DNA from: Parcubacteria group bacterium | GTDB taxonomy: Bacteria; Patescibacteriota; Minisyncoccia; Minisyncoccales; UBA10102 | Reading direction: 5' to 3' | Assembly (NCBI GenBank): GCA_016203945.1 | Contig: JACQLT010000002.1 | Coordinates: 157,189-221,188, forward strand | Length of the DNA: 64,000 nt | Part shown: one piece after another, positions 4,186-60,050 of the stretch | Layout: each line of letters starts with the position of its first letter | How positions within the stretch are numbered: the stretch's first letter is position 1 | Position numbers and translations under genes: made by a program | The notes under the pieces: model-generated | What the model was told of the DNA's origin: nothing | Database searches by the model: none | Seen by the model: only the letters and a program-made list of their open reading frames with translations

Positions 4186-4206
4186 ATCCTTGGCTAAGCC
4201 AAGGAT
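4186..4206. terminator. Hairpin between convergent genes (ATCCTTGGC-TAA-GCCAAGGAT)
   Basis: A perfect 9-bp stem with a 3-nt loop. It lies between the glycosylase stop (4174-4176) and the TatD stop (4206-4208). Confidence 0.45.
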
Positions 4207-5081
4207 TATATGCCAAAAAGGGTTTTTGCGTTTTGGGTGGTGACGCGGGCCACCTCTTCTAAAGAAATACTTTTGATTCTCGCGATTTCTTCTGCGACAT
4301 ACTGAACGTTGAGGGGTTCATTCCGCTCTTCTTTTGCTTGTGGCGGGGCCAGATACGGAGAATCTGTTTCTAATACGATCCGCTCAAGCGGAATTGACGA
4401 TACCACCTCCTCTGGACTTGGAAGCGCTGGAACCTGCTTAAGTATGAGCCCGTTAAATCCGATGTGCAATCCTTTTTCTACGAACCGCCGCGCCTGTTCT
4501 GTGGTTCCGGTATAGCAATGGACAACGCCTCGGCCGTTCCAACCGTCAATGAGCGCAAGAAGATCCTCGTGCGCCTTCCTGCAGTGGAATATAACGGAGA
4601 GGTTCAACTCTTGCGCAAGCTTCATCTGTTCCCTTAATGCATGCCTTTGCTTTTTCCGCGCCTCTTCGCGCTTTGTCTTGTTTTTGGATTCGTAATAGTA
4701 GTCCAGCCCGACTTCTCCTATCGCAACCACCCTCTCGCTCCGGGCCAGCAGCTTGTATTTCTCATACTCAAACTCTTCTGATCGCGTCTCAAACCCCGCA
4801 AGAAACTGCGCCCGCCCAGGGCGGGCTGTTTCTAACAGAGCCGATTGAAGTTCGAGACCGTCTACATGGCGCTTCTCCCCCAGGTGAATGGGATGAATGC
4901 CGACCGCGGCATATACTCCTTCTTCATATTGCCCCGCCATTTCCACGGCCCGCTTTGAGGTAGAGTACTGGGTTCCTGGCATAACAACCCAAATATCCGA
5001 ATCTAAGGCTCGCCTGAGAACTTCTTGAGCATCACCTTTAAACGCGTTGAAGTTTACGTGGCCGTGCGTGTCTATGAGCAT
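4206..5081 (-). CDS. TatD-family metal-dependent hydrolase/DNase
   Basis: 291 aa. It starts MLIDTHGHVNF (HxH metal motif), and continues with GEVGLDYYY, VIFHCR and LETDSPYL, the typical TatD/YcfH pattern. An extra segment of about 30 aa sits after the GLDYY motif. Confidence 0.85.
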   Translation of the reverse strand: MLIDTHGHVNFNAFKGDAQEVLRRALDSDIWVVMPGTQYSTSKRAVEMAGQYEEGVYAAVGIHPIHLGEKRHVDGLELQSALLETARPGRAQFLAGFETRSEEFEYEKYKLLARSERVVAIGEVGLDYYYESKNKTKREEARKKQRHALREQMKLAQELNLSVIFHCRKAHEDLLALIDGWNGRGVVHCYTGTTEQARRFVEKGLHIGFNGLILKQVPALPSPEEVVSSIPLERIVLETDSPYLAPPQAKEERNEPLNVQYVAEEIARIKSISLEEVARVTTQNAKTLFGI

Positions 5082-12974: not shown

Positions 12975-15900
12975 GGTCGTATCCCTATCCACAACTTCTT
13001 GCCTGCCTTGCCGTCAGGCAGGTCTCCCAGAACAAGTTCCTTTGCGACCGCGGTTTTGGTTCGACCCTCACGCATCTCCGATACCCCGGCACCTCTCTTG
13101 ACGGCAGCTTCGTGGGTACGCAGGAGATCTGCCGCGTCCCCTTCATATGCAAGCAATATCTTCTCTGCGGGCGTAAGGTGCGCCTCTTTGCGCATCTCCT
13201 GGATCCTGCGGATGATATCCCGCACCATACCCTCTTCTTTCAGTTCTGGAGTAATGGTGAAATCAAACTCCAAATCTTCTTTCATTGAGGGTGAGTATAT
13301 GACGTTTTTTATGTTCACCTCTTCTTTCAGCACATTAAGGATCTCCGGGGAATAGTCGGCCGACTTTCCTCGTATTTTCAATAGCGCTAAGGGTTGACGC
13401 ACCCTAACGCCGGCTTGCGCCCTCAAGGCCAATATCTTTGCCACGAGCTCGCGGAGTGAAGCCATCTGGACCTCCAGCTTGGAATCTCGGAGGGTTTTTT
13501 GAGGTTTTGGCCAAGAAGCCAGGTGCACGCTTTCTTTCTGTCCCAAGCGCTCAAACATTGCTTCGCTCAGAAAAGGAATAAAAGAAGCTGCCGCACGGCT
13601 CACTTGCTCCAGCACGAACCCGAGTACCAGGGAAGCTTCCTTTCGCTGCCGCCCTGAGGCCGCAATCTGAAACCTCGTCCTTGACCTGCGGATGTACCAC
13701 TGGGAGAGATCTTCTCCAACAAAGCGCTCCAGGGCACGGGTAGCTCCCGTGACGTCATACGCATCCATGGATGTCTCCATGTCAGCTATGAGAGAAGCCA
13801 GGCGAGAAAGAATCCATCGGTCCAACACATTCTTTGCTTTCGGAGCCTCTGAAGCACAGTTCTTAGCTCCGTAGGTTTCATAGAATACGAGAGAGTTCCA
13901 TAGGGGAAGCAGGAACTTCCTGATTGATCCTTCAATACCCTTCTTGTTGAATAACTTGGAATCCCCGGGCTGGTTCAGCGTAAAAAAGTACCATCTGACG
14001 GCGTCTGCTCCGTATGCGTTCACGATCTCCCAAGGGTTTACGATATTTCCCTTGGACTTTGACATCTTCTCACCCTTCTCGTCCAAGACATGGCCGAGGA
14101 CGATGGCATTTTTGTAGGGAGCTTTAAATCCCAGCAACGTGGACACGACGAGCAGGGTGTAGAACCAACCCCGCGTCTGATCAATGCCTTCCACGATATA
14201 ATCTGCCGGGAATTCTTTCGGCGGTTTCGAATTTCGGATTTCGAATTTCGGATTTTGCGCAAAGGGCATGGCCCCGGAATCAAACCATACGTCCACCACA
14301 TCCTTCACCCTTCTCATCGTTCCTTTCTTGCCCACCCGCCTCGGAAGCATTGCGGGCAGGCATGTGGTGCAAAAGAACCAGGCGTCGTCCACGAACGGAC
14401 GATGCAAGTTTACTTCCATGCGCTCATCTAAAGGAAGACGAGTAAATCGCACAAGGCGCGTTTCTGCAACCCGCAACCCCTCGTTTCTGCGCCATGCGAT
14501 GATCTCCTCGCGAGTAAGGCCCCTCATAGCGGCTTCCAACATAGAAAGCGGAAGCTCATGGCTAATGAGAAGAATGCGTTTCCCTTGATATCTATTCTCA
14601 AGCTCAAGAATAAAATTATATATGCGTTTCTGCACATCGTGCCAGTTCTCTCCCCCGGGCATAGGGTCTTCAAACCTTCTCAGATAGTGCTCTTCTGGGG
14701 TTTCTTTCGGCCTTGCCCATACTTTTCCAATTTTAGTTACATGTTTTCCGTTCAATTCACCTACATTTACCTCACGGAGCGCTTGCACTGTTTGGGGATT
14801 CACGCCAATTACTTTGCCGATAATATCTGCTGTTTGCTTGGTGCGAAGAAGATCTGAAGTGAAAATAAAATCAATTTTTTGTTTCTTCAGTTGTTTTGCT
14901 TGTTTCTCAACCTGAGCCCTCCCCTTTGGAGTAAGCGGCAAGGGTTTTTTCTCTGGCCAGCAAGACATAACATCAGAAAGCTGGCGCTCCGAATGGCCGT
15001 GACGCATAAGAAAGTATGTATTGGAAGAGAAGTTCTGAGAAGCCAATTCTCCAACAGAACCAATTATTTTGCGAGCTCCGCATGAACCGCATTCCCATAT
15101 AGGAAGTGGAGTTCCCCAATATCTCTCCCTGGAAAATGCCCAGTCTTTTACCTCGGAAAGCCATTCCCCGAACCTTCCTTTTTTAATGTGCGGAGGAATC
15201 CAATTGATATCCTGATTATTCTTGAGTAGCTGAGCTTTAACTTTACGCGTTGCCACAAACCAGCTTTCCTTTGCGTAGTACAGCAGCGGGGTAGAACATC
15301 GCCAGCAAAACGGATATTCATGCTCATAGTCTTCAGTTCTAAATAGGTTACCGTTCTTTTCTAAAATTTCCAGAATTAAATCTTCAGTTTTTTTATCTTT
15401 TACATACATGCCCTCCAACTCCTGTCCCACGTAAACAAACTTGCCCTGTTCATCAACGGTATGAAATTTAGGCAAACCGATTTTAGTTCCAAGATTATAG
15501 TCATCCTCTCCATACATGACCGCAGTGTGAACTACTCCCGTGCCATCTTCCGTAGAAACAAAGTCGGCTGCGTATACCTTGTAGGCTTTGCTGTCTTTGG
15601 CAAACGCTTCGATGGCAAATAGAGGTTCGTACTCTGATCCTATTAAATCGTCTCTGAAAACCGTCTGATAGCGCTTTAAGTTTGAGGAGTCAAAATCGGA
15701 AAAAATCTTAGAAGCAAGGTTTTCTGCCAAAATATAATGCTCACCGTTCTCAGACCATCTTACATATTGAATACCTTTATCGGCTGCTATCGCTAAAGCG
15801 ATATTGCCCGGAAGCGTCCACGGAGTAGTAGTCCATGCCAAAATGTAGTCTCCGGCATATACGCTGCCACCAGTACCATGATGTGATTTCACTTTAAATT

Positions 15901-18831: not shown

Positions 18832-19190
18832 GGGGGTGCGTGCTTTGACAGAGGAGAAAGGAACCGCTTGCAAGCCGAGCTTCCGGGATAAGCTCGTAAA
18901 TTCATTCCCGGGGCATACAACTGCCAACGTATTTCAGCCCCAACGGGCGTACGCTTTCGCGTAATTTCGAAGGCCATCTGTCTCTTGATTCTCAATAGAG
19001 AAAACAGGTGTCAACCATTGAGATAGGCTAGACGCTCACGGATTCCAGGGCAGATAGCCGAAACCTTCAAGGAATCCTCAAAAGAAGGGTTTTGCCCAAT
19101 TTCCACCTTCTTCATAGTCGCCAATTGGGATACGCTTGAAGACGGCTGTTCCAAACTTTTCTGGACGGGAGCTCATCCTCCCCACCTCCA
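18832..19190 (+). ncRNA. ssrA: tmRNA (SsrA), 359 nt, no encoded CCA
   Basis: It lies immediately downstream of smpB. The 5' GGGGGUG pairs with the 3' CACCUCC, giving a G3:U wobble (alanine identity) and discriminator A. A UUUGACA D-analog is present. The tag frame GCC AAC GUA ... GCU UUC GCG UAA (18923-18964) encodes ANVFQPQRAYAFA*. The T-arm GGGAG-CUCAUC-CUCCC has an atypical 6-nt loop. Confidence 0.8.
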
Positions 19191-19211
19191 CACTTCGACT
19201 CGTTTCAATAA

Positions 19212-29980: not shown

Positions 29981-30871
29981 TTAGATGACGTGTGTTGGCG
30001 CGCGGGTGTAGGCCTGCGTCGTGGAGATGCTGGCGTGGCCCAGCAACTCTTGCACGCTGGTTAGCGACGCGCCTCCAGCCAGTTTGTGCTTGGCGAAGGA
30101 GTGGCGCAGGGTGTACGCCGTGACGGCGCCCTGGATATTGGCCAGGCGGGCATAGTCCTTGAGAATAAGCCAGAAGCCCTGGCGCGTTAGCCGCTCGCCG
30201 CGGCAGTTGATGAAGAGCGCCCGCGACCGGCGCAAGCGGGTCAAGTCGGGCCGCGCCTCCACCAGGTAGGCGTGCAGCGCGGCCACGGCCTGCTCGCGGA
30301 TGGGGAGCAGGCGCTCCTTGCCCTGGCAGTGCACCCACGCCCGGTTATTGTGCAACTTAATGGAGTCCAGGTCGAGCGCCACCAGTTCGCTCACGCGCAT
30401 GCCGGTGCCGTAGAGTAACTCCAGCATGGCCTTGTCGCGCCGGGCCTTGGGCGTGAGGGCACAGGGCTGTTCCAGTAGTTCTCTCACCTCGGCTACTCTC
30501 AGCGCCTTGGGCAACAACTTACCCACGCGCGGGGACGATAACGCCTTGGCGGGATCGCTCGCCACGACTCCTTTGGCTGTGAGAAACCTGAAGAAGCTTT
30601 TCATCACCGTCACTTTGCGCGCTACGGTGGCGTTGGCATAGTCCTTGCCCTGCATAGTAGAGATGTAGGCCTGCAGGGTCTCGCGGTTGACGTCCTGCCA
30701 GCAGGACGTCTCCGCTCCGCGGTAGTCATTGCGGAACTTCTGGAGCTGGGTTAGATCGCTGCGGTAGGCAAAGATAGTGTTGGGGGCCACTCTCCTTTCC
30801 CTAAGCATGAACCCCAGAAACTGCTCTATCGTCGCGTCGCCAAATTCCAACTCTGCATTGGGCACGTCCAT
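29981..30871 (-). CDS. Tyrosine site-specific recombinase (XerC/XerD-like integrase)
   Basis: Contains an N-terminal SAM-like domain (TIFAYRSDLTQL), then ELLYGTGMRVSELVALD (catalytic R), HSFAKHKL and LLGHASISTTQAYT (HxxR...H...Y). The start at 30871 is preceded by GGGAGGAGA. G+C was about 65-68% in the two 60-nt samples I counted, against 47-53% in flanking genes. Confidence 0.9.
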   Translation of the reverse strand: MDVPNAELEFGDATIEQFLGFMLRERRVAPNTIFAYRSDLTQLQKFRNDYRGAETSCWQDVNRETLQAYISTMQGKDYANATVARKVTVMKSFFRFLTAKGVVASDPAKALSSPRVGKLLPKALRVAEVRELLEQPCALTPKARRDKAMLELLYGTGMRVSELVALDLDSIKLHNNRAWVHCQGKERLLPIREQAVAALHAYLVEARPDLTRLRRSRALFINCRGERLTRQGFWLILKDYARLANIQGAVTAYTLRHSFAKHKLAGGASLTSVQELLGHASISTTQAYTRAPTHVI

Positions 30872-30940
30872 TCTCCTCCCTTGTGTTAGGTGCTGGCACT
30901 CAACAGGAATGCCCAACCATATCAAAGAGTCCGAAGGGTG

Positions 30941-31258: not shown

Positions 31259-31297
31259 ATGGTTCTAGTATGGGGCGAACTTTCAATATGTGATATG

Positions 31298-31369
31298 TGT
31301 CCCCATCCAGACTCGAACTGGAATTTCAGCCTTCGGAGGGCTGCGCTCTATCCATTGAGCTATAAGGAC
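31298..31369 (-). tRNA. tRNA-Arg (anticodon CCG)
   Basis: The minus strand reads GTCCTTA TA GCTC AATGGATA GAGC G CAGCC CTCCGAA GGCTG AAAT TCCAG TTCGAGT CTGGA TGGGGAC A. This is a clean 72-nt cloverleaf with no encoded CCA. Confidence 0.9.
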
Positions 31370-41833: not shown

Positions 41834-42793
41834 ATGATTGTCAAGGACCCTCCTCAACTCCGCCCTGCGACGTTCGCAGAGTACATAGGCCAAGAAAAAC
41901 TCAAGAACCAGCTCCGGGTCATCCTGGAAGCCGCGAAAAAGCGCGGAGAGCCCTTAGAGCACTTGCTGTTTTACGGCAACTCAGGACTTGGCAAGACCAC
42001 GCTCGCCCATGTGGTCGGAAACGACATAGGAGCTGCCCTGCACGCAGCAGCCGGCCCTTCGCTTGAGCGCACAGGAGACATTGCCTCTCTTCTTACCTCT
42101 CTTGAAGAAGGAGATATCCTCTTTCTGGACGAGTGCCACCGCGTGCCAAAGCCCGTACTGGAAATGCTCTACTCTGCCATGGAAGACTTCAAGCTCCATC
42201 TGGTGATCGGCAAGGGGCCCATGGCGCGCACCATGGAACTAGACATTCCCCGGTTCACGCTCATCGGAGCCACCACGCGCATGGCGCAGCTTCCGAGTCC
42301 GTTCCGAAACCGCTTTGGAGCAATATTCCATTTTTCCTTCTATACGCCAGACGATATGGAGCACATCGTAAAGCGCTCTGCATCCATTCTGGGCATGGAG
42401 TTGGGCAGCGAAGCTGTTCGCATGGTTGCCGCTTCCTCGCGCCTCACGCCGCGCGTTGCAAATCGCCTCTTGCGCCGCATACGGGACTTCGCAAGCATTG
42501 AGGAGGCGAAGATTACGGCGGATCTCGTAAAAAAAGCGCTTGAGTTTTTGGAAATTGACGAATGGGGATTGGAGCGGACCGACAGGCGCATCTTGGAGGT
42601 GCTCGTGCAGAAGTTCAAAGGAGGTCCTGTCGGGATTCAAGCCTTAGCTTCCGCTCTCTCTGAGGAAGAGGAGACCATTCTGGACGTATACGAACCCTTC
42701 CTCATGCGCCTCGGATTCATTGAACGAACTCCGAAGGGCAGAATGGCTACTCCCCTCGTATACAAACATCTACAACTTCCATTATTGGGATGA
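41834..42793 (+). CDS. ruvB: Holliday junction helicase RuvB
   Basis: Contains Walker A GNSGLGKTTLA, Walker B LFLDECHR, and sensor and winged-helix regions. Confidence 0.95.
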   Translation: MIVKDPPQLRPATFAEYIGQEKLKNQLRVILEAAKKRGEPLEHLLFYGNSGLGKTTLAHVVGNDIGAALHAAAGPSLERTGDIASLLTSLEEGDILFLDECHRVPKPVLEMLYSAMEDFKLHLVIGKGPMARTMELDIPRFTLIGATTRMAQLPSPFRNRFGAIFHFSFYTPDDMEHIVKRSASILGMELGSEAVRMVAASSRLTPRVANRLLRRIRDFASIEEAKITADLVKKALEFLEIDEWGLERTDRRILEVLVQKFKGGPVGIQALASALSEEEETILDVYEPFLMRLGFIERTPKGRMATPLVYKHLQLPLLG

Positions 42794-51029: not shown

Positions 51030-51493
51030 GCGCTGAACCAACAATTGAAATAGCAAAGCTGCTCGTCAAAGAGCTGTTCTCGCGCCTGGGGATCAAAGAA
51101 GCTCCGGCCGTGAGCATGCCAGACGGGCAGACCCTGCAGGTGACCCTGACAATAGAAGACCCCAAGACCCTTATTGGAGAACGCGGCCAGACGCTGTTTG
51201 AAATCCAGCATCTTCTGCGCGCTATGCTCAGAAAAAAACTTCAGCAAGACCCCCCCCGCGTATTCCTGGATATCAACGACTACCGCAAGAGCAAGGAAGA
51301 ATATCTTCGGGACGCAGCCCGGCTGGCGGCCGACGAAGCGGTGCTGCTCAGTAAGCCCCGCGAGCTCGAGGCAATGTCGGCGGCTGACCGCAGGATCGTG
51401 CACATGGAATTAGCCCAGCGCTCAGACGTTGCCTCCGAGAGCATAGGAGAAGGAGAAGAGAGAAGGGTGGTGATAAAGCCGAGGGCATCCTAA
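51026..51493 (+). CDS. jag: Jag/SpoIIIJ-associated KH plus R3H RNA-binding protein
   Basis: Contains a KH motif (LIGERGQTL) and an R3H motif (MSAADRRIVHMEL...ESIGEGEERRVVI). An ATGA overlap links it to the yidC stop. Confidence 0.85.
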   Translation: MSAEPTIEIAKLLVKELFSRLGIKEAPAVSMPDGQTLQVTLTIEDPKTLIGERGQTLFEIQHLLRAMLRKKLQQDPPRVFLDINDYRKSKEEYLRDAARLAADEAVLLSKPRELEAMSAADRRIVHMELAQRSDVASESIGEGEERRVVIKPRAS

Positions 51494-53283
51494 CCCCGGT
51501 CTTCTGCGGCGCGCTTCGCAGTTTCCCGCGCCAGGAGTTCTTTGGGAGACGTGGTGACAATCTCGTGTTCCGTTGGAGAGGCCACCACCTTAATGGCCAC
51601 GTGTTTTTGTCCCGCAAAAAAGATTCCTTCCCCCAGCCCGGTCTCCAAGAGCAGCTGCTTTTCCGCTTCGGTAAGATTGAATGCTTTTTGTACAACATCA
51701 ATGGTTGCAGGGCTTTGCTTGAGTAGAAGCTGCAAAGATGAGTTCGTGATAATCGGCCTGCCATAATCGGATCGCATAAAGTCACCAACATCTTGGGTGA
51801 TGGTGGTCACGCCCAGGTAGTACTTCCTGGAGCGTTTCGCGATACCGTACAGAAAAGATGCTCCGTCTTCTGACTGCATAATCCACCAGGCCTCGTCCAC
51901 CACGAGAATTCTTTTTTTAAGCACAGACCTCACTACGCTCCAGATGTAGCGCATGATGATGTACATTGCGAGGGGCCGCAAACCCTCTTCCATGTTGCGG
52001 ATACCGAAAGAGACCAGGTTGGTGGTAAGAGAAATATTAGAATGCTGGTTGAAGAAGTTGGCGTAGGTTCCCTTGGTGAACTTTTGGAGTCTGCGCACCA
52101 GAGACTCCGCGCCCTCCATGGTAAGGAGCACTTCTTCTAAATCCTGCATTAAGGGGATGTTCGCCTGCCAGTTCTTGGGGTCTGAAGTTACCGTAATGTC
52201 TTTTGCGGCATAGGTTTCCGTAACGGCTCTGTCCATAATAGAATCTTCTTCGGGAGTGAGCCCGCCCAGCATGAGGCGCATGAGGCCTACGAGGTTGATG
52301 ACGTTGGATCGCAGGACGTCGTCTGGCCGCTCATCTTCTCTTGGGAGCGGCAAGTCAAAGGGATTGATGTGGTTTTCAGATCCCAGAGAAATATCAAAGA
52401 ATGATCCTCCAGCGGCTTCGCAAAGCGGCTTGTATTCATTTTCAGGGTCTAACACGACGACGTCTACGCCCGTCATGAGCGACCTGAGAATCTCCAATTT
52501 TACTGCGTAGGATTTTCCAGAGCCCGACTTTGCGAATATGACCTCGTTGGCGTTTTCCAAAGAGAACCGGTCAAAAAGAATAAGAGAATTGTTGTGCCGG
52601 TTGATTCCATAGAGAATACCCTCGTTGGAGCTCAAGTCGAAAGACAGGAACGGAAAGAGCGAAGACAGGGGGCCGGTATTCATTGTGGTATGGGATTGGA
52701 GAAGGTCTTTCCCGTACGGGAGGCTGGAATTGAACCCCTCTTTCTGGCGATAGAGCGCCGGCTTCATATAGATGAGGCGCGACTCAAAAATGGAACGCAG
52801 TTCCGTCTTAATCCTCAACAACTCCTCTTGTGTTTCCCCGTATATGTTCAGGTATACGCCAACCTTGAACATCCTTTCCTGGGCCGTTTGCAGAGCATCC
52901 CGCAGGTTCTCAAGATCTGCGAATGCGGTTTCAAGAGAAGGATCTCGCACAAGGCCTCTTTCGGATTTCTCCATAAGCTCTGACTCAACCTCGGTAACTT
53001 TTCTGCGCAGCCGTTTGAGCACCAAGCCAGTGTCCACCGGATGGGCGAATAAGGCAACATCCATCGGAACCCCCATGTTAATGACCGGAGCTAACCAAGC
53101 TGAAGTGAGATACCGAGGGTAGGAGAAGATGAACATGGAAGTCGCCAGGCGTCCTGCCATGTCCAAATACTCGGAATCCACTTTCACCGTGGCCGGAGCT
53201 ATGATATCTTTTGCGGTTAGGGTGTCCCTCTCAAAGAGCTTTTCGGAGACCGCCCCTGTTTTTTTTCCGAATAATGAAGCCAT
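51490..53283 (-). CDS. VirB4/TraC/PrgJ-like type IV secretion ATPase (middle plus ATPase part)
   Basis: 597 aa. Contains IIAPATVKVDSEYLDMAGRLATSMFIFSYPRYL, Walker A FAKSGSGKSY, Walker B ILVVDEAWW and TTITQD. Confidence 0.85.
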   Translation of the reverse strand: MASLFGKKTGAVSEKLFERDTLTAKDIIAPATVKVDSEYLDMAGRLATSMFIFSYPRYLTSAWLAPVINMGVPMDVALFAHPVDTGLVLKRLRRKVTEVESELMEKSERGLVRDPSLETAFADLENLRDALQTAQERMFKVGVYLNIYGETQEELLRIKTELRSIFESRLIYMKPALYRQKEGFNSSLPYGKDLLQSHTTMNTGPLSSLFPFLSFDLSSNEGILYGINRHNNSLILFDRFSLENANEVIFAKSGSGKSYAVKLEILRSLMTGVDVVVLDPENEYKPLCEAAGGSFFDISLGSENHINPFDLPLPREDERPDDVLRSNVINLVGLMRLMLGGLTPEEDSIMDRAVTETYAAKDITVTSDPKNWQANIPLMQDLEEVLLTMEGAESLVRRLQKFTKGTYANFFNQHSNISLTTNLVSFGIRNMEEGLRPLAMYIIMRYIWSVVRSVLKKRILVVDEAWWIMQSEDGASFLYGIAKRSRKYYLGVTTITQDVGDFMRSDYGRPIITNSSLQLLLKQSPATIDVVQKAFNLTEAEKQLLLETGLGEGIFFAGQKHVAIKVVASPTEHEIVTTSPKELLARETAKRAAEDRG

Positions 53284-53288
53284 GTGCG

Positions 53289-53921
53289 TTACCGGATGAT
53301 TTCCGGAGGAATCTCAGGATAGTAGCCGACTTCTGCTTCTTTTGGGTGATGCCACCCCCAAAACAATTCTATAAGTTCTTCTGAGTTCAAAGGAGCCACT
53401 TTTAGGCCCATGCGTCTCAATCCGAGCGCCACGAATTCCATGCGCTGCCAGAGCTGCGTCTTCATGCGCTGCAAGTCGTCATCGGAAAGCCCCCCCACAA
53501 TCCTCGGCATGCGCTTCCGGTCGTCAAGCGGCAGGGTTTCTACGAGAGAAAACGGCACGACTACAAAGAAATTCTTGGTCATAATGGCAGACCCCGCAAT
53601 GAGGCGCTCCACGAACGCATGGTAGTCCTTGGTGAGCCCCTTCAGCAGTTCATTCTTCTGATTTACCTCCAGCTCCTTGAGCTGGTCTAAGTAGCCGGTA
53701 AGGTTAAGCCTGCGGGATTGGACGACGATCTGCATCGAAAAATCCAGCGAGTTCAAGAGGGACTGGAACTGGGCAATAGTCGCATCCTGTTCTTCGCCCG
53801 ACTTCAGGGCGAAATTCTGTGAAGAAACAAGCATGACGCCGCGCACGGTGCGGTCTTTGAGCACCGCCATTCCCTCTCGGATCTCGTCTAGCTCAAGGAA
53901 TTCTTGTGTCGTGGCAGCCAT
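53289..53921 (-). CDS. VirB4 N-terminal-domain-like protein (separate ORF)
   Basis: 210 aa. FLELDEIREGMAVLKDRTVRGVMLVSSQNFALKSGEEQDATIAQFQSLLNSLDFSMQIVV resembles the N-terminus of Gram-positive-type VirB4 proteins. 210 + 597 aa is about the length of a full VirB4. Confidence 0.5.
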   Translation of the reverse strand: MAATTQEFLELDEIREGMAVLKDRTVRGVMLVSSQNFALKSGEEQDATIAQFQSLLNSLDFSMQIVVQSRRLNLTGYLDQLKELEVNQKNELLKGLTKDYHAFVERLIAGSAIMTKNFFVVVPFSLVETLPLDDRKRMPRIVGGLSDDDLQRMKTQLWQRMEFVALGLRRMGLKVAPLNSEELIELFWGWHHPKEAEVGYYPEIPPEIIR

Positions 53922-53924
53922 TGT

Positions 53925-54326
53925 TTAAGATTCAATTTTTGTTGAGAGTTTGCTAATCTTACTTTCTTTAGAAAGCGTAATCTGGGTTGTGCGGGGTTCG
54001 GGCGCAGCTTCCGGGGCAGCAGCGCGAGCTGGCGCGCTGGCGAATACGCGCTTCTTTTTCCAGTAGTAGATCTTGCCCCCCATCTGGAAACTCAAGAAAT
54101 CTATGAATACAGCCGGAAGCGATTTCCCCCCAATCTGCACAAAGGCGGTGAGAAATCCAAATGCCGCAAGGCCGAGGCTTGCTACCGCAAAGACAAGCAG
54201 AGGCGCAAAGAAGTACAGAATAAAGGCGGCTCCGCCCGCGACCGCAAGAAAAGCGAATTGGCGGAAGGTGAGTGGCCCCACCACCAGCGCCTCTCGTTCA
54301 ATAAATTGGGGAACTTGGAACTGCAT
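53925..54326 (-). CDS. PrgI/VirB3-like small membrane protein
   Basis: From ATG 54326 it reads MQFQVPQFIEREALVVGPLTFRQFAFLAVAGGAAFILYF, followed by a second TM segment. This resembles PrgI-family N-termini. Confidence 0.6.
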   Translation of the reverse strand: MQFQVPQFIEREALVVGPLTFRQFAFLAVAGGAAFILYFFAPLLVFAVASLGLAAFGFLTAFVQIGGKSLPAVFIDFLSFQMGGKIYYWKKKRVFASAPARAAAPEAAPEPRTTQITLSKESKISKLSTKIES

Positions 54327-54339
54327 GATGTTTTTTACA

Positions 54340-54771
54340 TTATCTCGGAGCGCAGGGGATGCTGAAGATCCCGCCCCCAAGCCCGGTCCACTCCTGCACG
54401 CCAATGGCAACAAAGAACAGGTTAATGACGAGCCACGAGGCATAGACAATGAGCAGCCCGAACATAACGCTTTTCAAAATGTCCCTGCCGCGCTGTATGT
54501 TTGCGGGACTTCCCTGCGAGAACAGAAAATACGCTCCCCCGACAACCACCATGAGGACAGCCACGGCAGGCACGAAGGTGAATAAGATGAAGTCCAGAAT
54601 GCGATCGACAAGGAGAAAGATGTGGCAAAATTGGCAGCCCTCTGTTTTTGCGTCGTATATGCCGTCTCCATCTATATCGTATCCGCAAGGCACCAGCCCC
54701 TGGGCAAGGGCAAAAGGAGCTGCGGAGAGCAGCAGGAGAAAGACGGCGACGAAAAGACATGCTCTTTTCAT
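54340..54771 (-). CDS. T4SS pilin-like protein (VirB2/TrbC analogue of the CPR type)
   Basis: It has a signal peptide ending ALAQG, then LVPCG...CQFC and two TM helices with GG...SQGSPANIQRGRDIL between them. This matches the 'T4SS pilin' family pattern as I recall it. Confidence 0.65.
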   Translation of the reverse strand: MKRACLFVAVFLLLLSAAPFALAQGLVPCGYDIDGDGIYDAKTEGCQFCHIFLLVDRILDFILFTFVPAVAVLMVVVGGAYFLFSQGSPANIQRGRDILKSVMFGLLIVYASWLVINLFFVAIGVQEWTGLGGGIFSIPCAPR

Positions 54772-54774
54772 TTT

Positions 54775-55224
54775 TTATTCAAACGATTCCCGATACGTAT
54801 CTTCTTTCTTTGGAGTGGCAGGAGATGGCGCTTCTTGCGCGAAAGCCGCAGCTGCGGGCGCCGCCTTCTTTACCTGGGGAGCAGCCGAGTTAGCTGCCTC
54901 TGTTATGTTATGAAGCTGGCGCAAGCTTTCTTTCACAGGAAAGAAGACGAACCTGGTGATATCTCTTGCGATATTCGCAGCCGCGTCTTTTTTAAGCCCC
55001 ACTTCTTTTTCCAGGGTTTTTTGGAAGTCCTCTGGAAGTAAAATGCCCATGAGCACTTGTCCCGTAAGCTCCGCAACCCTATTCCCCCGCTCGTCAGTCA
55101 CGCCCTGCGACAGGCGTGCGTTATAAATCGCATCCGCGGTTTCCACGGAAAAGATCGCCTCTTGCAGCTCATCGGGAAGCTTTTCAAATATCTGATTAAA
55201 CTGTTCTTGAGTATACTGTGGCAT
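54775..55224 (-). CDS. Hypothetical soluble protein (149 aa) heading the pilin-VirB3-VirB4 unit
   Basis: A clean ORF with no TM segment and an Ala/Pro-rich C-terminus. I recognise no motif. Confidence 0.45.
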   Translation of the reverse strand: MPQYTQEQFNQIFEKLPDELQEAIFSVETADAIYNARLSQGVTDERGNRVAELTGQVLMGILLPEDFQKTLEKEVGLKKDAAANIARDITRFVFFPVKESLRQLHNITEAANSAAPQVKKAAPAAAAFAQEAPSPATPKKEDTYRESFE

Positions 55225-55239: not shown

Positions 55240-55284
55240 CCGCGAAAGAATACCACAAGCCTGCCTGCCGCAGGCAGGCGCCAC

Positions 55285-55313
55285 TTGACACAGCCACTTT
55301 TTTGTTGTAGTAT
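55285..55313 (+). promoter_or_regulatory. Sigma-70-like promoter (TTGACA-N17-TAGTAT) for the SPFH cassette
   Basis: TTGACA is at 55285-55290, followed by a 17-nt spacer and TAGTAT at 55308-55313. A GC-rich palindrome GCCTGCCtgccgcaGGCAGGC (55259-55279) precedes it. A ~60-nt leader with AAAGGAGG follows. Confidence 0.45.
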
Positions 55314-55373
55314 TGCTCCAGAAAAACTGAACCTTAAGAACAAAAAGAAAGCAGGCCAGAAAGGAGGTCGCGC

Positions 55374-55592
55374 ATGCCTAAGCTTTCAATGGAGCAGGTC
55401 GTTTGGATCGAGCTCATCGCAATCTGGGCCGTGATCGGCCTCCTGGTGGGCATCATGCTTTGGGAGCGGCTAAGGGAGTTTATTCGGAAGATGTTCCGCT
55501 CCCCAATATCTTCAGCAACGCTCCGGGGCAAGAGGAAAACGTTGCGGGGCCGCCCCGCATACGAAGGGAAATCGAAATCGGTACCCCAATAA
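55374..55592 (+). CDS. Small single-TM protein (72 aa) preceding the SPFH gene
   Basis: It has a strong SD (AAAGGAGGtcgcgcATG), one hydrophobic helix (VVWIELIAIWAVIGLLVGIMLW) and a basic tail. Its position is analogous to NfeD-type partners of SPFH genes, but it is much shorter. Confidence 0.5.
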   Translation: MPKLSMEQVVWIELIAIWAVIGLLVGIMLWERLREFIRKMFRSPISSATLRGKRKTLRGRPAYEGKSKSVPQ

Positions 55593-55610
55593 AAGAAAGG
55601 AAGGTGTAGT

Positions 55611-56684
55611 ATGCAGTGGGCGGTGCTTGCAGGCGCTACGCCAGTTGTTCTGGGAATCGCATGTTTCCTGCTCGTGTGGTTCGTGCTCGCTCCCCGGAAT
55701 CTGTTCTTCACGTTCGTTTCTGAGGGCACAGCAAAGATCGTCGTGAAGGCAGACCAATTTTCCAGGTGCCTCATCCAGTGGAAGGGGTATACCCTGGATG
55801 AAAACGGGAATGTGGTGTCGGGCAAAGACGGCTTCCACCCGTTTGGAGGCCTGCGGTTCGTAGGCATCTGGCCGATTTGGGACATCTTCGTTTACCTTCT
55901 GCGCTGGAATGACGTTCACAGGGCAGAAGAGCGAAACGGGAGGATAGAAGAAGTCAGGTTCCACGCCAAGTGGCTGGACTATATCCTTCTTCGCCCGGAC
56001 GTCTACTGGACAAAGCTCACGGGAGCAGAGACCACACCAGGGACAGCGGAAACGCCAGAGGCCCAAGAGCGCATCCCACTGGACGTGGAGTTTAACATCA
56101 CCATGCAGGTGATAAATCCGTACAAGGTAATGTTCGTAGCTCCCCCAAACTGGGTGGAAAATGTCCTCGTGCGGCTTGACGCGGTCCTTCGAGGATTTGT
56201 CGCCACCCACACCCTCGACGAGCTACTTGCTATGAGGGGAGGCGGCGGCGAACAAGCTGAAATAGTGACCTGGAACGAACTCGGTGCACATCCGTTCATC
56301 CAAGAAACCCTCGGGGAATGGGGCATTTCCATTCCTGAAAACGGGATTCAGATGAAGAACATCGGGATCCCGGCCGACATCCAGCAGGCCGCTCAAGCAA
56401 GGCGCACGGAGCAGTTAAGGGCCGAAGGCGAGCGGCAGAGGGTGCAGATCGGCGCCTCAGCAGAGGCGCAGAGAATCCACACGACCTATGGCGCCGTAGA
56501 ACAACACGCCTCAGGCATGCTTATTCGGACTCTTGAGGCTGTCGAGAAGAGCCCATTGCCGGCAGCCTTGGCTGTCCAGGTCATCCCAGGTCTTTCAGAT
56601 GTCCTTCGGGGCGTGCTCGAAAGGCCTGCAGCCGCAGTTGCTGCCGCTCCGGCAACAGATCAGGATCAGCCTGCTGCTCAGTAG
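55611..56684 (+). CDS. SPFH/band-7 (stomatin-prohibitin-flotillin-HflKC) domain membrane protein
   Basis: It has an N-terminal TM segment, then VSEGTAKIVVK...IPLDVEFNITMQVINPYKVMF...LDAVLRGFVATHTLDELL...GISIPENGIQMKNIGIPADIQQAAQARRTEQLRAEGERQ. This is the typical SPFH core plus a coiled coil, with an insertion. Confidence 0.6.
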   Translation: MQWAVLAGATPVVLGIACFLLVWFVLAPRNLFFTFVSEGTAKIVVKADQFSRCLIQWKGYTLDENGNVVSGKDGFHPFGGLRFVGIWPIWDIFVYLLRWNDVHRAEERNGRIEEVRFHAKWLDYILLRPDVYWTKLTGAETTPGTAETPEAQERIPLDVEFNITMQVINPYKVMFVAPPNWVENVLVRLDAVLRGFVATHTLDELLAMRGGGGEQAEIVTWNELGAHPFIQETLGEWGISIPENGIQMKNIGIPADIQQAAQARRTEQLRAEGERQRVQIGASAEAQRIHTTYGAVEQHASGMLIRTLEAVEKSPLPAALAVQVIPGLSDVLRGVLERPAAAVAAAPATDQDQPAAQ

Positions 56685-56698
56685 CAGCGGCAAAGCAC

Positions 56699-56729
56699 AA
56701 AGGGGGTTTGCGAAAGCAGCCCCCTTTTT
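56699..56729 (+). terminator. Rho-independent terminator after the SPFH gene
   Basis: AAAGGGGGtttgcgaaagcagCCCCCTTT followed by TTATTATT. Confidence 0.55.
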
Positions 56730-56733
56730 ATTA

Positions 56734-59145
56734 TTACGCCAGAGAGCCAGGCCTTCCCCGAGGAAGTTTTTCTTGTCCGCCCTCTTTAGAAGATCCTGTT
56801 GCTCCTGGTCTTCCCCGAGGAGTCCGTTCCGGGCCGCCTTCTCCCGGAGGTGGCGGAGTTGTTGAAGGGGGCGTTGCAGAAGCTCCGCTGGCTCGGGAAC
56901 GAGCGAGCTTCTCTTGCGTGCGCGTTTGGTCTTCTTCTAGTTCTCGAATTTTTTGCAAGCTTTCCGGGGAAAGGTCTACGGCTCCTCCTGGCCGACGCCC
57001 CCTTTCTTGTACAAGTTCTTTTTGTATGTCGTCGAGACGGCGCTCTAATCCCCGAATGTCTGCGGAACCAGGAACCCGATATCGTTCAATAATTTTTTCA
57101 GCGTCGTCTTGTGTGAGCCCTTTTCCTGTTTCAGGGTCTATATATGTAAAACCAAGATTGTGGGCGCCGGTACTCGAAACCCACTTCAACACATCTGGTG
57201 CGTTTTTCCCTAGCCAATCTTTATCAAGACTGCATATGTGATTAGTGATTGCTGTTCGTTCTGCTTGTTCTCGCCTGCGAACCATTGGGCCGATAAATTC
57301 CGCTCCGCGCTCTATGAGCATCGAGTTAATAAATGCCGCGCCCGCTGGAGTGCTGGGATCATAGTTGCTCGGCGCATTCTCGTCGCCTTTTAAGTCTTCG
57401 GGCGTCATGCGGGCGGGAATCTTTGCTTTCATCCTCTCAAAATATTCTGCGTCAGAGCCCTTTCTTGAGAGAGCCCCCTCCGTGAACTTTACGCGCCCGG
57501 CATCGTCTTTTGCAAACTTGCCTTCAGCATCTCTTTCTAGGTCGTCGCTTCCGACATTGAAGCCCCATTTCGCTGGGTTAGTCATGATTTGTCCATAGAA
57601 TGCCTTGAAAAGCGGACGCTCGCCATGGGGACCTATCCTGTCTCTCCCCAGTTTTATCAATTCTCCGATCTTTGCTTCTTTTCCTACCAACACCCCGTTT
57701 TTTTCAGGATCAAAAGCATCTTCAATATCATCTGCGTCTCCGCGGTTCCTTACTCCGGTCAGCAATCCCAAAATACGATTTTTATTTGGGACGGGCTTTA
57801 AGAGCTCGGCATTAACAGTAGCGAACACGTCTCGGGAGTCTCCCATCTTAGCGGTTTCTTTTACCGCCCTATCAAACGCAGCATAATCCCTAAAGTTAAC
57901 CTGCTTGGAAAGTTCTCGCGCCCCGGCCTCTGTGACCCCCCAGCCTTTTCGCAAAGCCATTCCCGCAATAGTTGCCGGAATTCCGACTGCCCTGCCGGCC
58001 CCCCGTTTTTCAGCTCCCCATTGCTGCAATCCGCTTGCGAGCGATGTCATTTTTGTTGCAACTCCCGTAGCTTTGTTCCCGTACCTTCTCCAAAAAGCAG
58101 TACCCGCGGTTGCCCCGCCCCACTTGAGACCTTTCATGGCAAACGCCTTTGTGGCGGTGGCACCCATGGCGCCGCTTGTCTGCAAGGCGACAAAAAATCC
58201 CACCAAGAGCATGGCGAGCGCAATGCTGTAGGGTACGGTATCGTTGAGTATGCCGGCGACAAAGCCGTAAACCCCACCGCCCGAGGGCACTGACGCAGCA
58301 ATCTCCCCCCGCGCCGCGAGGCTAATGATATGATCTCCCAGCCACAAGAAGAATGCGGCGAATATTCCAATGATAGACCATTGGAAGAATTGGTTCCACC
58401 ACCAATTGAACAAGCCCCGCGTTCGCGGAAGGATAAAAGCAGCGAACGCGATGGGGGAAAGAATAACCAAAATCCAAATAGCAATCCTCCTCACTATAAA
58501 GAGCGCGGCAAAAAGCATGAAAATAATGGCGGCGAAAACCTGAAAAGCCATGACGGCGAGCAATTGAAATATAAGAGAGATGTCGAAGATATTGCTATTG
58601 CCCGAAACAATATTGGTAAGATTTGTTAGAAGGTTCGTAACCAATCCGATGCCCGCCAATCCTTCCAGGAAAAAATTCATAAAGATGTTGGCGGTATCAA
58701 CAATGAATCCGGTAATGACCGGGGTGAAGTTGATAAGAAGGGCTACTCCAATAAGCCGAGGCAGGGTTTTCTTTGCCTCGTATTGCCCAAGGCGCAGGGC
58801 GGTTGCCAGCCCAATAATGATTAAAAAGAACACGATAAGCATGTTCGCAAAATCGCGAACAACAGTCCACCCGGTCTCAACAATGGGACCCGTGGTATAC
58901 GGAACCCGAATAAAAGAAGGATCAGTCGCAAGGCCAAGAATGATTCCTGCTATGGTGGCAGCGGCGGTTGTAAGGAAAAGCCCCGCAAGTAAAAATTGAC
59001 CGATAACCAAAACCGCAATCGCATTTGCAATGCCGCCTAAAAATCCACCAAATTGCGCCTGCGCAACGTTTGGAGAAAGGGCGATTCCCATCGAGGCAAA
59101 AAGAACAATCGCCAGCACTCCGCGTTTCCAGGCAAAAAATCTCAT
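56734..59145 (-). CDS. VirB6/TrbL-like polytopic membrane protein with a large C-terminal soluble domain
   Basis: It has a signal/TM start (MRFFAWKRGVLAIVLFASMGIALSPNVAQAQ). Many hydrophobic helices fill the first ~400 aa, including a WWWNQFFQW segment. A hydrophilic region of about 400 aa follows, ending in a Pro/Gly/Arg tail with PRGRPG twice. Confidence 0.6.
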   Translation of the reverse strand: MRFFAWKRGVLAIVLFASMGIALSPNVAQAQFGGFLGGIANAIAVLVIGQFLLAGLFLTTAAATIAGIILGLATDPSFIRVPYTTGPIVETGWTVVRDFANMLIVFFLIIIGLATALRLGQYEAKKTLPRLIGVALLINFTPVITGFIVDTANIFMNFFLEGLAGIGLVTNLLTNLTNIVSGNSNIFDISLIFQLLAVMAFQVFAAIIFMLFAALFIVRRIAIWILVILSPIAFAAFILPRTRGLFNWWWNQFFQWSIIGIFAAFFLWLGDHIISLAARGEIAASVPSGGGVYGFVAGILNDTVPYSIALAMLLVGFFVALQTSGAMGATATKAFAMKGLKWGGATAGTAFWRRYGNKATGVATKMTSLASGLQQWGAEKRGAGRAVGIPATIAGMALRKGWGVTEAGARELSKQVNFRDYAAFDRAVKETAKMGDSRDVFATVNAELLKPVPNKNRILGLLTGVRNRGDADDIEDAFDPEKNGVLVGKEAKIGELIKLGRDRIGPHGERPLFKAFYGQIMTNPAKWGFNVGSDDLERDAEGKFAKDDAGRVKFTEGALSRKGSDAEYFERMKAKIPARMTPEDLKGDENAPSNYDPSTPAGAAFINSMLIERGAEFIGPMVRRREQAERTAITNHICSLDKDWLGKNAPDVLKWVSSTGAHNLGFTYIDPETGKGLTQDDAEKIIERYRVPGSADIRGLERRLDDIQKELVQERGRRPGGAVDLSPESLQKIRELEEDQTRTQEKLARSRASGASATPPSTTPPPPGEGGPERTPRGRPGATGSSKEGGQEKLPRGRPGSLA

Positions 59146-59151
59146 TACATT

Positions 59152-59160
59152 ATTGTACCA
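59152..59160 (-). promoter_or_regulatory. Putative extended -10 (TGgTACAAT) 6 nt upstream of ATG 59145
   Basis: The minus strand reads TGGTACAATaatgtaATG. No SD is present. Confidence 0.4.
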
Positions 59161-59317
59161 CCGCCAAAAGCCTGCGCAACAAGACGCCCCGCTCAATCAG
59201 GCGCAGAGGGGGTCGGGTTGACAAGTCCAGGGGAAAATTAGATACTATATCCAGACATCCGCCACAGTGGTGGATTTGACATCTCAATAGCACACAAGTT
59301 CCAGAAGGAGGAACACG

Positions 59318-59995
59318 ATGGACAGAAGGCATACGGTGGGAAAGGGGGTCAGCCAACAGCCGACGCTGACCATCCCTACGCCATCCAAGAGATTGATCAT
59401 CGGGATCGGGCTCGCAATCATCCTGATCGCGGCGATGGCGCTAATTGCGGTGACCATCGCGCTCACCACATCGTCGCCCGCAACCGACACAGCAGCCGTG
59501 GCCAACGTTCAGGAGCCGGCCGTTGCCAACACCGACCAGCAGGTCTCGCCAAATGGCGTTCAGGCACAGACGAGCGAGCCGACCGGCGACTTCACCCGTC
59601 CGGCAGACGCCGTCCGCATCGGCGAGTTCCTGATCACGGTGAACTCGGTGAGTACGCCGTCGGGCATCAACCCGCCGGAAGCCCACCTGAAGTACGTGGT
59701 CATCGAGCTCTCAGTGCAGAACGTCGGCACAAGCTCGAGTACGATTCGTGACATCGACGACTTCACGCTGTTTGATAGCGATGGGGTCAGGGCTAGCGCG
59801 CTGGTTGGAGGCGATGCGGAATCTGACGCCCTAGGAGAGCTTGGCAAGCGACTCCGTGGAGAATATCCGCGGGTTGAGCCTGGGCAGACCCTTGGCAGAG
59901 TCATGGTATTCAAGATCCTGAAGGATACCAAGCCCGCGCGTCTCGAGTTCTCGAGTCTCGACACCGGAGCCAGCGGCACTATTCCGCTCAAGTAG
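59318..59995 (+). CDS. Membrane-anchored DUF4352-like (Ig-fold) protein
   Basis: It has a strong SD (GAAGGAGGaacacgATG), one TM segment (LIIGIGLAIILIAAMALIAVTIAL) and a low-complexity linker. Then comes FLITVNSV...KYVVIELSVQNVGTSSSTI..DDFTLFDSDGV...VEPGQTLGRVMVF. Two TTGACA boxes lie upstream (about 59219 and 59276). Confidence 0.55.
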   Translation: MDRRHTVGKGVSQQPTLTIPTPSKRLIIGIGLAIILIAAMALIAVTIALTTSSPATDTAAVANVQEPAVANTDQQVSPNGVQAQTSEPTGDFTRPADAVRIGEFLITVNSVSTPSGINPPEAHLKYVVIELSVQNVGTSSSTIRDIDDFTLFDSDGVRASALVGGDAESDALGELGKRLRGEYPRVEPGQTLGRVMVFKILKDTKPARLEFSSLDTGASGTIPLK

Positions 59996-60016
59996 TCTGC
60001 CCAGGGCGGATACATA

Positions 60017-60050
60017 AGGGCGTTCTCACATGAACGCCCTCCTTTTTATT
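60017..60050 (+). terminator. Rho-independent terminator after the DUF4352-like gene
   Basis: AGGGCGTTCtcacatGAACGCCCT followed by CCTTTTTATTT. Confidence 0.55.

Follow-up and report, generated by a model that had tools for sequence, protein, structure and literature searches.

A self-contained stomatin-type SPFH gene in an antisense slot of a Parcubacteria type IV secretion system locus

Introduction

Prokaryotic stomatins and slipins, such as PH1511 of Pyrococcus horikoshii and QmcA of Escherichia coli, combine an N-terminal membrane anchor, an SPFH domain, a long coiled coil and a conserved C-terminus. In both QmcA and stomatin the SPFH domain lies in the cytoplasm. HflK and HflC are encoded by paired genes and carry their SPFH domain on the outer membrane face, and SPFH cages enclose membrane proteases, as in HflK/C-FtsH. 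In Staphylococcus aureus the SPFH scaffold FloA reportedly supports the type VII secretion system. Here we describe a gene for a protein of the stomatin type that lies, on the opposite strand, inside the locus of a type IV secretion system (T4SS) in a Parcubacteria group bacterium. The stretch analysed, hereafter the window, comprises 64,000 nucleotides of contig JACQLT010000002.1 (assembly GCA_016203945.1, positions 157,189 to 221,188).

To our knowledge, the T4SS of Patescibacteria is the only T4SS known to be essential for the growth of its owner, and its composition and function are poorly understood. The published locus is MPF-FATA-like, with VirB4, TrsD, PrgI/VirB3, VirB2-like pilins and VirB6 and without a relaxase (PMC12102498; Wang et al. 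2023, PMC10633639), and in Paceibacteria it is origin-proximal, beside dnaA, dnaN, rnpA, rpmH and ksgA (Quinonero-Coronel et al. 2025, PMC12102498). The locus in the window has the same components, again without a relaxase, and matches the published Paceibacteria arrangement. An SPFH/Band_7 gene in the locus is mentioned in neither of these papers nor in a 2025 T4SS nomenclature review (PMC12857230), and a literature search joining Patescibacteria or the candidate phyla radiation (CPR) with SPFH or stomatin returned nothing relevant.

Published evidence that SPFH proteins serve secretion systems is mixed. In Agrobacterium, the T4SS and the type VI secretion system are found in detergent-resistant, SPFH-marked membranes, and the T4SS does not depend on SPFH (PMC8656257). 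The idea pursued below, that an SPFH scaffold orders the patch of membrane in which a secretion machine is put together, is the one put forward for flotillin/SPFH microdomains. FloA and the Agrobacterium proteins come from unlinked, general-purpose SPFH genes, whereas the SPFH gene of the window sits inside the T4SS cluster.

Results

A stomatin-type protein encoded by a self-contained unit

The plus-strand unit lying between minus-strand T4SS genes is a self-contained stomatin-type membrane-scaffold gene (Table 1), and we regard its anatomy, conservation, vertical descent and fold as established. A first-pass annotation, made by a model from the letters and their translated open reading frames (ORFs), had described a membrane-scaffold module with its own expression signals that might have been laterally acquired. 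The first part of that description holds: the unit encodes an SPFH fold with a transmembrane (TM) anchor and has a promoter, a Shine-Dalgarno (SD) site and a terminator of its own. The SPFH ORF that the annotation named matches Pfam Band_7 (PF01145) at 30.2 bits against a cut-off of 23.6, and in passing this threshold so barely it differs from stomatin. In an AlphaFold2 monomer model (predicted local distance difference test score 85.6) a TM helix leads into an SPFH domain rich in beta structure, after which come a helix of 43 residues and a disordered tail. Foldseek aligns this model over its full length to HflK/C, stomatin, QmcA, prohibitin, erlin and flotillin (probability 1.0, ~335 columns).

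Profile searches place the family nearest to archaeal and human stomatin and QmcA. Among PDB entries its best match is the P. horikoshii stomatin (3bk6, 4.8e-22), with QmcA (8z5g) at 7e-11 and HflK at 1.7e-6, and the protein resembles PH1511 and QmcA in having the N-terminal anchor, SPFH domain, long coiled coil and conserved C-terminus. Unlike stomatin, it carries an extra beta-rich N-terminal segment with the motif HPFGGLRFYGxWP, which is specific to the family, and its gene stands antisense within a T4SS gene cluster. At 50% identity the family falls into 620 clusters (E of 1e-30 or better); it has 19 invariant columns and a conserved C-terminal motif, LIRTLEAxEKSPLAASLxVQAIPGL. Its members have one, two or three TM segments, and in every variant the positive-inside rule predicts a cytoplasmic SPFH domain, as in QmcA and stomatin. 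By homology, many copies of the protein may come together as a large homo-oligomeric ring or cage.

In most related loci the unit is monocistronic. Unlike the stomatin-NfeD operon, it has no NfeD partner: family scans of the unit found no NfeD gene, and none occurs among the downstream ORFs of the sister clade described below. The 72-aa ORF upstream, considered as such a partner, matches no NfeD or other family and was rejected. Neither the SPFH protein nor the small ORF nor the neighbouring 149-aa protein has a PADLOC or PHROG match. A defence-system or phage origin was rejected on these grounds and on the lack of plasmid or phage matches reported below.

The 72-aa single-TM ORF itself is present as first described. 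It has no match in Pfam, NCBIfam, PADLOC or PHROG, and homologues occur only in the related loci L001 and L057 (51-56% identity), with an invariant C-terminal motif, KTLRGRPA(Y/F)EG. Judging by this distribution, the ORF is a subclade-specific addition. In L057 an extra ORF and a second promoter lie between the small ORF and the SPFH gene. The two ORFs share a frame in the window, and the small one was considered as a split-off first TM segment of the SPFH protein; this was rejected, since in L001 the small ORF occurs together with a two-TM SPFH protein, the two being in different frames.

Position and descent of the gene

The SPFH gene holds one position across a wide range of genomes. In eight homologue contexts (33-61% identity) it is always antisense to the T4SS genes and in the same slot, with a VirB6-like gene of 715-820 aa to one side and a group made up of VirB4, TrsD-like, PrgI and a small pilin-like gene to the other; counted over the loci compared first, nine of nine have this slot and orientation. 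GTDB species genomes, when scanned, yielded 45 SPFH loci, all from Patescibacteria, and hidden Markov models (HMMs) of the neighbours put 23 of them in the arrangement of the window. The remaining 22 (21-30% identity) form a separate clade, accompanied by a co-directional membrane-protein ORF, a solute-binding protein and gyrA and by no T4SS genes. Slot and orientation are kept in 31 independent loci, the window and 30 others, from genomes of 30-53% GC, and in all of these the SPFH gene is encoded inside the T4SS cluster. Some loci have a pilin-like gene between the SPFH and VirB6-like genes. One subclade, which lacks a VirB4 block within 8 kb, shows the order dnaA, dnaN, SPFH and then the convergent VirB6-like gene, and where the VirB4 block is not adjacent (L020, L024, L025, L032) the SPFH and VirB6-like genes still are.

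The embedded proteins form one neighbour-joining clade, with two long-branch exceptions, and they diverge along with the secretion genes around them. SPFH distances correlate with those of VirB4 (Mantel r 0.59, p 5e-4, 18 loci) and of the TrsD-like protein (r 0.56); the correlation with VirB6-like distances, which are saturated, is weaker (r 0.35). Over 35 loci the correlation with VirB4 is r 0.35 (p 2e-4), and the nearest SPFH neighbour is also the nearest VirB4 neighbour in 14 of the 35. With these neighbouring T4SS genes as reference, the SPFH phylogeny thus lacks the incongruence with VirB4 and TrsD-like that a foreign gene might show. Between the window and L001, identity is 78% for the 149-aa protein, 62% for SPFH and 61% for the VirB6-like protein; mean p-distances are 0.65 for SPFH, 0.30 for VirB4 and 0.74 for the VirB6-like protein.

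Signs of mobility were sought at three levels. No direct repeats flank the cassette borders, no integrase, transposase or other mobility gene lies in the 50-64 kb part of the window, and tblastn found no match to SPFH in 72,556 plasmids or 50,697 phages. The SPFH protein has an identical counterpart in a Parcubacteria-group metagenome-assembled genome, and all SPFH relatives found are from Patescibacteria. Lateral acquisition is not supported, because the slot is conserved, the gene co-diverges with its neighbours, its raised G+C at third codon positions (GC3) is clade-wide (see below), and neither scars nor mobile relatives were found. From these comparisons the SPFH unit reads as an old, vertically inherited resident of the Parcubacteria T4SS locus and not as a recent foreign insertion.

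Occupancy of the slot

The slot was also surveyed from the VirB4 side, in 80 metagenome loci picked by VirB4 alone and unbiased for SPFH, 46 of which had enough upstream flank. The SPFH type of the window fills it in 19 of these 46 loci. In about five more it holds a very divergent SPFH gene on the same strand, three being clear Pfam Band_7 matches, one weak and one recognised via BLAST clustering; for the divergent SPFH of L090 the hhalign probability is 92.6%. Six loci have unrelated occupants, charged or coiled-coil proteins whose genes share the promoter, SD, GC excess and terminator of the SPFH unit, the junction is empty (at most 460 nt) in 11, and in five the content is undecided. SPFH-type genes, extremely diverged ones included, are the commonest occupants (24/46). 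The gene does not, then, accompany every VirB4: 19 of 46 loci carry the type found in the window, or 24 with the divergent types, and the three closest VirB4 relatives of the window are without this type. The presence/absence comparison suggested in the first-pass annotation is accordingly split, the site being constant in 31 loci and the occupancy not clade-wide.

Patchy presence combined with co-divergence with VirB4 is consistent with a gene long resident at the site that has repeatedly been lost, been replaced or undergone runaway divergence. A leader hairpin common to L007, which has the SPFH type of the window, and L128, which has a divergent one, suggests divergence in place.

Other slot occupants were examined for relationship to the family. 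Those of L059 and L081 were rejected as remote relatives (hhalign probabilities of 5% and 0.1%), L059 being tied to SPFH solely by BLAST clustering with L133 and the L081 occupant being a LysM-M23 peptidase. The non-SPFH cargo was also considered as PspA/ESCRT-III-type scaffolds and gave no significant Pfam or PDB sequence matches. As a separate observation, the antisense slot of L059-L138 keeps promoter, leader, strong SD, raised GC and terminator whatever its cargo, and one cargo protein has a treble-clef zinc finger.

Composition

The first-pass annotation had taken the unit to be richer in GC than its surroundings, and the direction of this difference is correct. Its size was overstated from short samples (58% and 70%): over its full length the cassette has 56.4% GC against 51.1 +/- 2.5% in same-size windows (z 2.1, 97.8th percentile), and the flanking T4SS genes, given as 43-48%, measure 48-53%. 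The tetranucleotide deviation is similar (z 2.2) and the codon-usage distance ranks 4th of 31 long genes, so that on all three measures the unit ranks towards the high end of the window (z about 2), and the differences are modest over full genes. The SPFH gene taken singly has 57.4% GC (z +1.6), and more extreme values occur elsewhere in the window, in a tyrosine recombinase gene (61.7%) and a DUF4352 gene (61.1%).

The excess recurs in the related loci. SPFH GC lies above that of the adjacent T4SS genes by 3.9 points (27/31 loci, spanning 30-53% GC), and GC3 lies above by 8.7 points in 29 of the 31 (p 6.5e-8). With unrelated cargo in the slot the GC3 excess persists (e.g. 0.66 vs 0.50 and 0.53 vs 0.35). 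Because it is clade-wide and present whatever the cargo, the excess appears to be a property of the SPFH gene or its slot and not a foreign signature. In the window, SPFH GC3 (0.648) is close to that of the genes for IF3 (0.659) and L20 (0.652), against a gene mean of 0.576, and the raised value may reflect expression-linked codon bias.

The strongest compositional outlier of the window is the tyrosine recombinase gene (29981-30925, minus strand; Phage_integrase and SAM-like domains), with a GC3 of 81% (z 3.4) and the top codon-usage distance. It adjoins tRNA-Arg(CCG) (31297-31369, minus strand) and could be XerC/D-like or mark the edge of an integrated element.

Expression signals

The predicted TTGACA-N17-TAGTAT promoter is one of the two best sigma-70-like matches in the 50-64 kb region, and alignment shows it, with the leader sequence, to be conserved in L001 and L057. 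About two-thirds of the 31 loci have, upstream of the SPFH gene, a promoter match of 10/12 or better that includes an exact TTGACA, and 11 of them reach 12/12. The ~60-nt leader noted in the first-pass annotation is unstructured (folding z +1.1) and its strong SD, AAAGGAGG, ends 6 nt before the ATG of the small ORF. A further SD-like site, AAAGGAAGG (55596-55604), serves the SPFH gene itself from the 18-nt gap after the small ORF. An SD of at least 5 nt is found at the SPFH gene in 87% of loci vs 4-5% for PrgI and the pilin-like gene.

SPFH leaders have a recurrent order of elements: a 5' stem-loop, the motif YTT[AGT]A[AC]AA, an A-rich stretch and the SD. The motif occurs ~30 nt before the start in 30 of 56 leaders vs 2.3 expected, an enrichment that is optimistic since the motif was defined post hoc from the same data. 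The stem-loop is a tendency of the first 45 nt (mean z -2.0, p 1.6e-9). Both the T4SS-embedded and the gyrA-linked clades share this design; the leader of the window has the motif, as CCTTAAGAAC, and not the 5' hairpin. No Rfam family was found in the SPFH leader, the Rfam scan of the window returning one transfer-messenger RNA (tmRNA) and one tRNA only. The leader element could be an mRNA stabiliser or a regulatory site.

The terminator predicted downstream folds with a free energy of -22.6 kcal/mol (z -3.7), a value that 0 of 200 shuffles equalled. Read on the minus strand (-17.1, z -2.2), the hairpin abuts the stop codon of the convergent 820-aa gene; it is shared with this VirB6-like gene and is therefore bidirectional. 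A hairpin and T-run follow the SPFH stop codon in most related loci. The GC-rich palindrome upstream of the promoter is present and perfect, as described, and does not belong to the conserved unit. It was considered as a conserved operator and ruled out, being a 17-nt window-specific insertion that is absent from L001, the closest relative covering the region. A similar palindrome, CCTGCC...GGCAGG, occurs at 13002-13022 and at 55260-55278 (three pattern matches vs 0.07 expected), and these palindromes may be a small repeated element.

The contrast with neighbouring genes drawn in the first-pass annotation is borne out. SD-like words stand before only 7 of 52 ORFs in the window, and a strong AAGGAGG-type SD before four genes: the small ORF, the SPFH gene, the DUF4352 gene and a SLOG-family gene. 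Of 36 genes, 11 show a TAnnnT box whose end falls 4-13 nt ahead of the ATG, vs 8% at random positions; such boxes occur at the divergent 149-aa gene, where TAAACT stands 6 nt from the ATG on its upstream side, and at two leaders of T4SS operons, among others. Boxes this near the ATG and without an SD fit leaderless starts. With these signals, the SPFH unit is probably strongly expressed.

Elsewhere, many window genes (833-3244, 4206-5081, 41834-42793 and 54775-55224 among them) have a -10-like TAnnnT ending 5-8 nt before the ATG and no SD, a pattern that suggests widespread leaderless translation in this genome. A second opposite-strand unit within the T4SS locus (59218-60040, plus strand) has the same design as the SPFH unit: TTGACA-N17-GATACT (59218-59246), the SD GAAGGAGG and, at 60017-60040, a terminator-like hairpin that is the best in the region. 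The unit encodes a 225-aa DUF4352 protein with an N-terminal TM segment (59318-59995; GC3 74.8%), and a DUF4352-like gene lies nearby in L001 too.

Gene context

Matches to T4SS_pilin, PrgI, TrsD/TraC-like, VirB4 and VirB6/TrbL_3 bear out the T4SS-like minus-strand flanks of the first reading; the component names used in Table 1 are those of PMC12102498. VirB4 of the window carries a TraG P-loop domain. The VirB6-like homologues of L002, L005 and L010 match Pfam TrbL_3, and the right flank holds, besides the VirB6/TrbL_3-family gene, one for a 543-aa minus-strand protein with a pilin domain. PBP1a, dnaN, dnaA, yidC and jag immediately precede VirB4, an order found again in L004 and L009.

Two further observations concern the wider context. 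The VirB4 of L005 (4282-8073, minus strand; 1263 aa) holds an intein, with Intein_splicing and LAGLIDADG homing-endonuclease domains, within its ATPase. In the window, the tmRNA gene (Rfam RF00023, 91.7 bits; 18832-19193, plus strand) lies directly upstream of the genes for IF3 and L20.

Table 1. Coordinates of the SPFH unit and of the genes on either side of it, in window positions
Feature	Position	Strand	Remarks
T4SS block	51490..54771	-	VirB4 51490-53283; TrsD/TraC-like 53289-53921; PrgI/VirB3 about 53925-54338; VirB2-like pilin 54340-54771
149-aa soluble protein	54775..55224	-	First gene of the divergent T4SS operon; no assigned family; 78.5% identity to L001 homologue; leaderless-like
Palindrome GCCTGCCTGC-c-GCAGGCAGGC	55259..55279		Perfect 10+10, GC-rich; between two divergent promoters
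Sigma-70-type promoter TTGACA-N17-TAGTAT	55285..55313	+	10/12 match
A-rich 5' leader	55320..55373	+	Contains CCTTAAGAAC (55332-55341) and SD AAAGGAGG (55360-55367)
72-aa protein with basic tail	55374..55592	+	Single TM; subclade-specific by distribution
357-aa stomatin-type SPFH protein	55611..56684	+	TM helix 2-26, SPFH domain, coiled-coil helix 255-297, conserved C-terminal motif, disordered tail
Terminator hairpin and T-run	56699..56735		Hairpin 56699-56727; bidirectional
820-aa VirB6/TrbL_3-family polytopic membrane protein	56734..59196	-	Convergent with SPFH gene; family HMM 939 bits

Discussion

The reading that we favour, with a probability of roughly 0.45, is that of a resident SPFH unit whose abundant, cytoplasm-facing ring organises the membrane patch of the T4SS. 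The unit fills the opposite-strand slot between the VirB2-pilin/VirB3/TrsD/VirB4 operon and the VirB6-like gene. It would be transcribed from its own near-consensus sigma-70 promoter and translated from a strong SD on an open leader, unlike most genes of the genome, and its transcript would end at the terminator common to the convergent VirB6-like gene. Like other SPFH proteins, the protein would build a ring or cage of many subunits against the inner side of the membrane, and the T4SS membrane platform (VirB6-like, VirB3, VirB4) encoded by the flanking genes would be held together or stabilised by it. Such a cage would need far more copies than the T4SS subunits, and this high copy need would explain both the separate strong expression unit and the raised GC3. 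The oligomeric cage, the high expression and the T4SS role are what we infer here, and functional recruitment to the secretion apparatus, also raised in the first-pass annotation, is a plausible candidate role.

Almost as likely is a housekeeping role with a merely historical location, in which the same gene, of the same descent, encodes a general SPFH membrane-homeostasis scaffold and is kept in a strongly expressed, origin-proximal slot by stable gene order. Several observations weigh on this side and against a T4SS-specific role. SPFH is not universal at the locus, since 11 of the 46 junctions are empty and six hold unrelated cargo that shares the promoter, SD and GC excess of the SPFH unit, and its presence and absence are interleaved on the VirB4 tree. 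Each of the 45 assemblies, represented by ~20-kb contig pieces, gave one SPFH locus, embedded or gyrA-linked and never both, so that the embedded gene may be the single general-purpose SPFH gene of its genome; the sister clade, with the same leader architecture, sits elsewhere, near gyrA. Gene order is rigid across the whole region, with the unrelated rpmH, rnpA, yidC, jag and ksgA equally syntenic, and for this reason the SPFH-T4SS adjacency is weak evidence of function. Outside Paceibacteria, Southlakia epibionticum (Saccharimonadia), the only genetically studied Patescibacterium, has a T4SS that is essential by transposon sequencing (PMC10633639), and its sole SPFH gene (SEML1_0609) is absent from the T4SS locus and lies far from it, unlike that of the window; the Agrobacterium T4SS, too, works without SPFH proteins (PMC8656257). 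What speaks for a dedicated T4SS role is that the embedded genes form their own clade, that SPFH-type genes are the commonest in the slot (24/46), and that the protein evolves fast, its p-distance of 0.65 (vs 0.30 for VirB4) being closer to the 0.74 of the VirB6-like protein than to that of a housekeeping protein.

Two other explanations fare less well. An HflK/C-like regulator, in which the SPFH assembly controls FtsH-type proteolysis or the turnover of T4SS membrane subunits, would suit the enclosure of proteases by known SPFH cages, the full-length similarity of the model to HflK/HflC-FtsH structures (7vhq, 9cz2) and the place of HflK and HflC among the best structural matches (7vhq_E, 3e-9). 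We consider it improbable, as the unit has a single gene and no K/C pair, contains no protease or NfeD gene, has a predicted topology opposite to that of HflK/C, and encodes a protein whose profile is nearer to stomatin (3bk6 4.8e-22) than to HflK (1.7e-6). Least probable is a recent laterally acquired cassette, or an unrelated insertion, that splits the T4SS locus, both of which the first-pass annotation had allowed for. The opposite strand, the separate signals, the upper-tail composition, the patchiness among close VirB4 relatives and the window-specific palindrome at the left border would all suit such an event. One site and one orientation in 31 loci of 30-53% GC, co-divergence with VirB4, TrsD-like and VirB6-like proteins, a GC3 excess that is clade-wide and tracks the slot whatever its cargo, the lack of border repeats, nearby integrase or transposase genes and plasmid or phage matches, and the restriction of all relatives found to Patescibacteria argue strongly against it.

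Within the reading of a resident T4SS scaffold, a more far-reaching proposal can be made, which we hold to be doubtful. The Paceibacteria T4SS would have, as an accessory structural component, an SPFH ring or cage that is dedicated to it and expressed separately and strongly, and it would be the first secretion system with a genetically linked SPFH scaffold. The scaffold gene would be housed in a conserved antisense high-expression slot that keeps its promoter, 5' hairpin, YTTDAMAA motif and SD across cargo swaps.

If the link to the T4SS does not hold, the unit serves as a warning that in CPR genomes, poor in SD sites and prone to leaderless genes, raised GC3 together with an SD and a strong promoter may mark an expression class and not foreign DNA. 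An SPFH scaffold gene in the middle of the locus in roughly half of Paceibacteria is a testable candidate T4SS accessory factor, new to published descriptions of the locus. If the link does hold, the gene would offer a genetic entry point to the way in which SPFH microdomains assist secretion machines.

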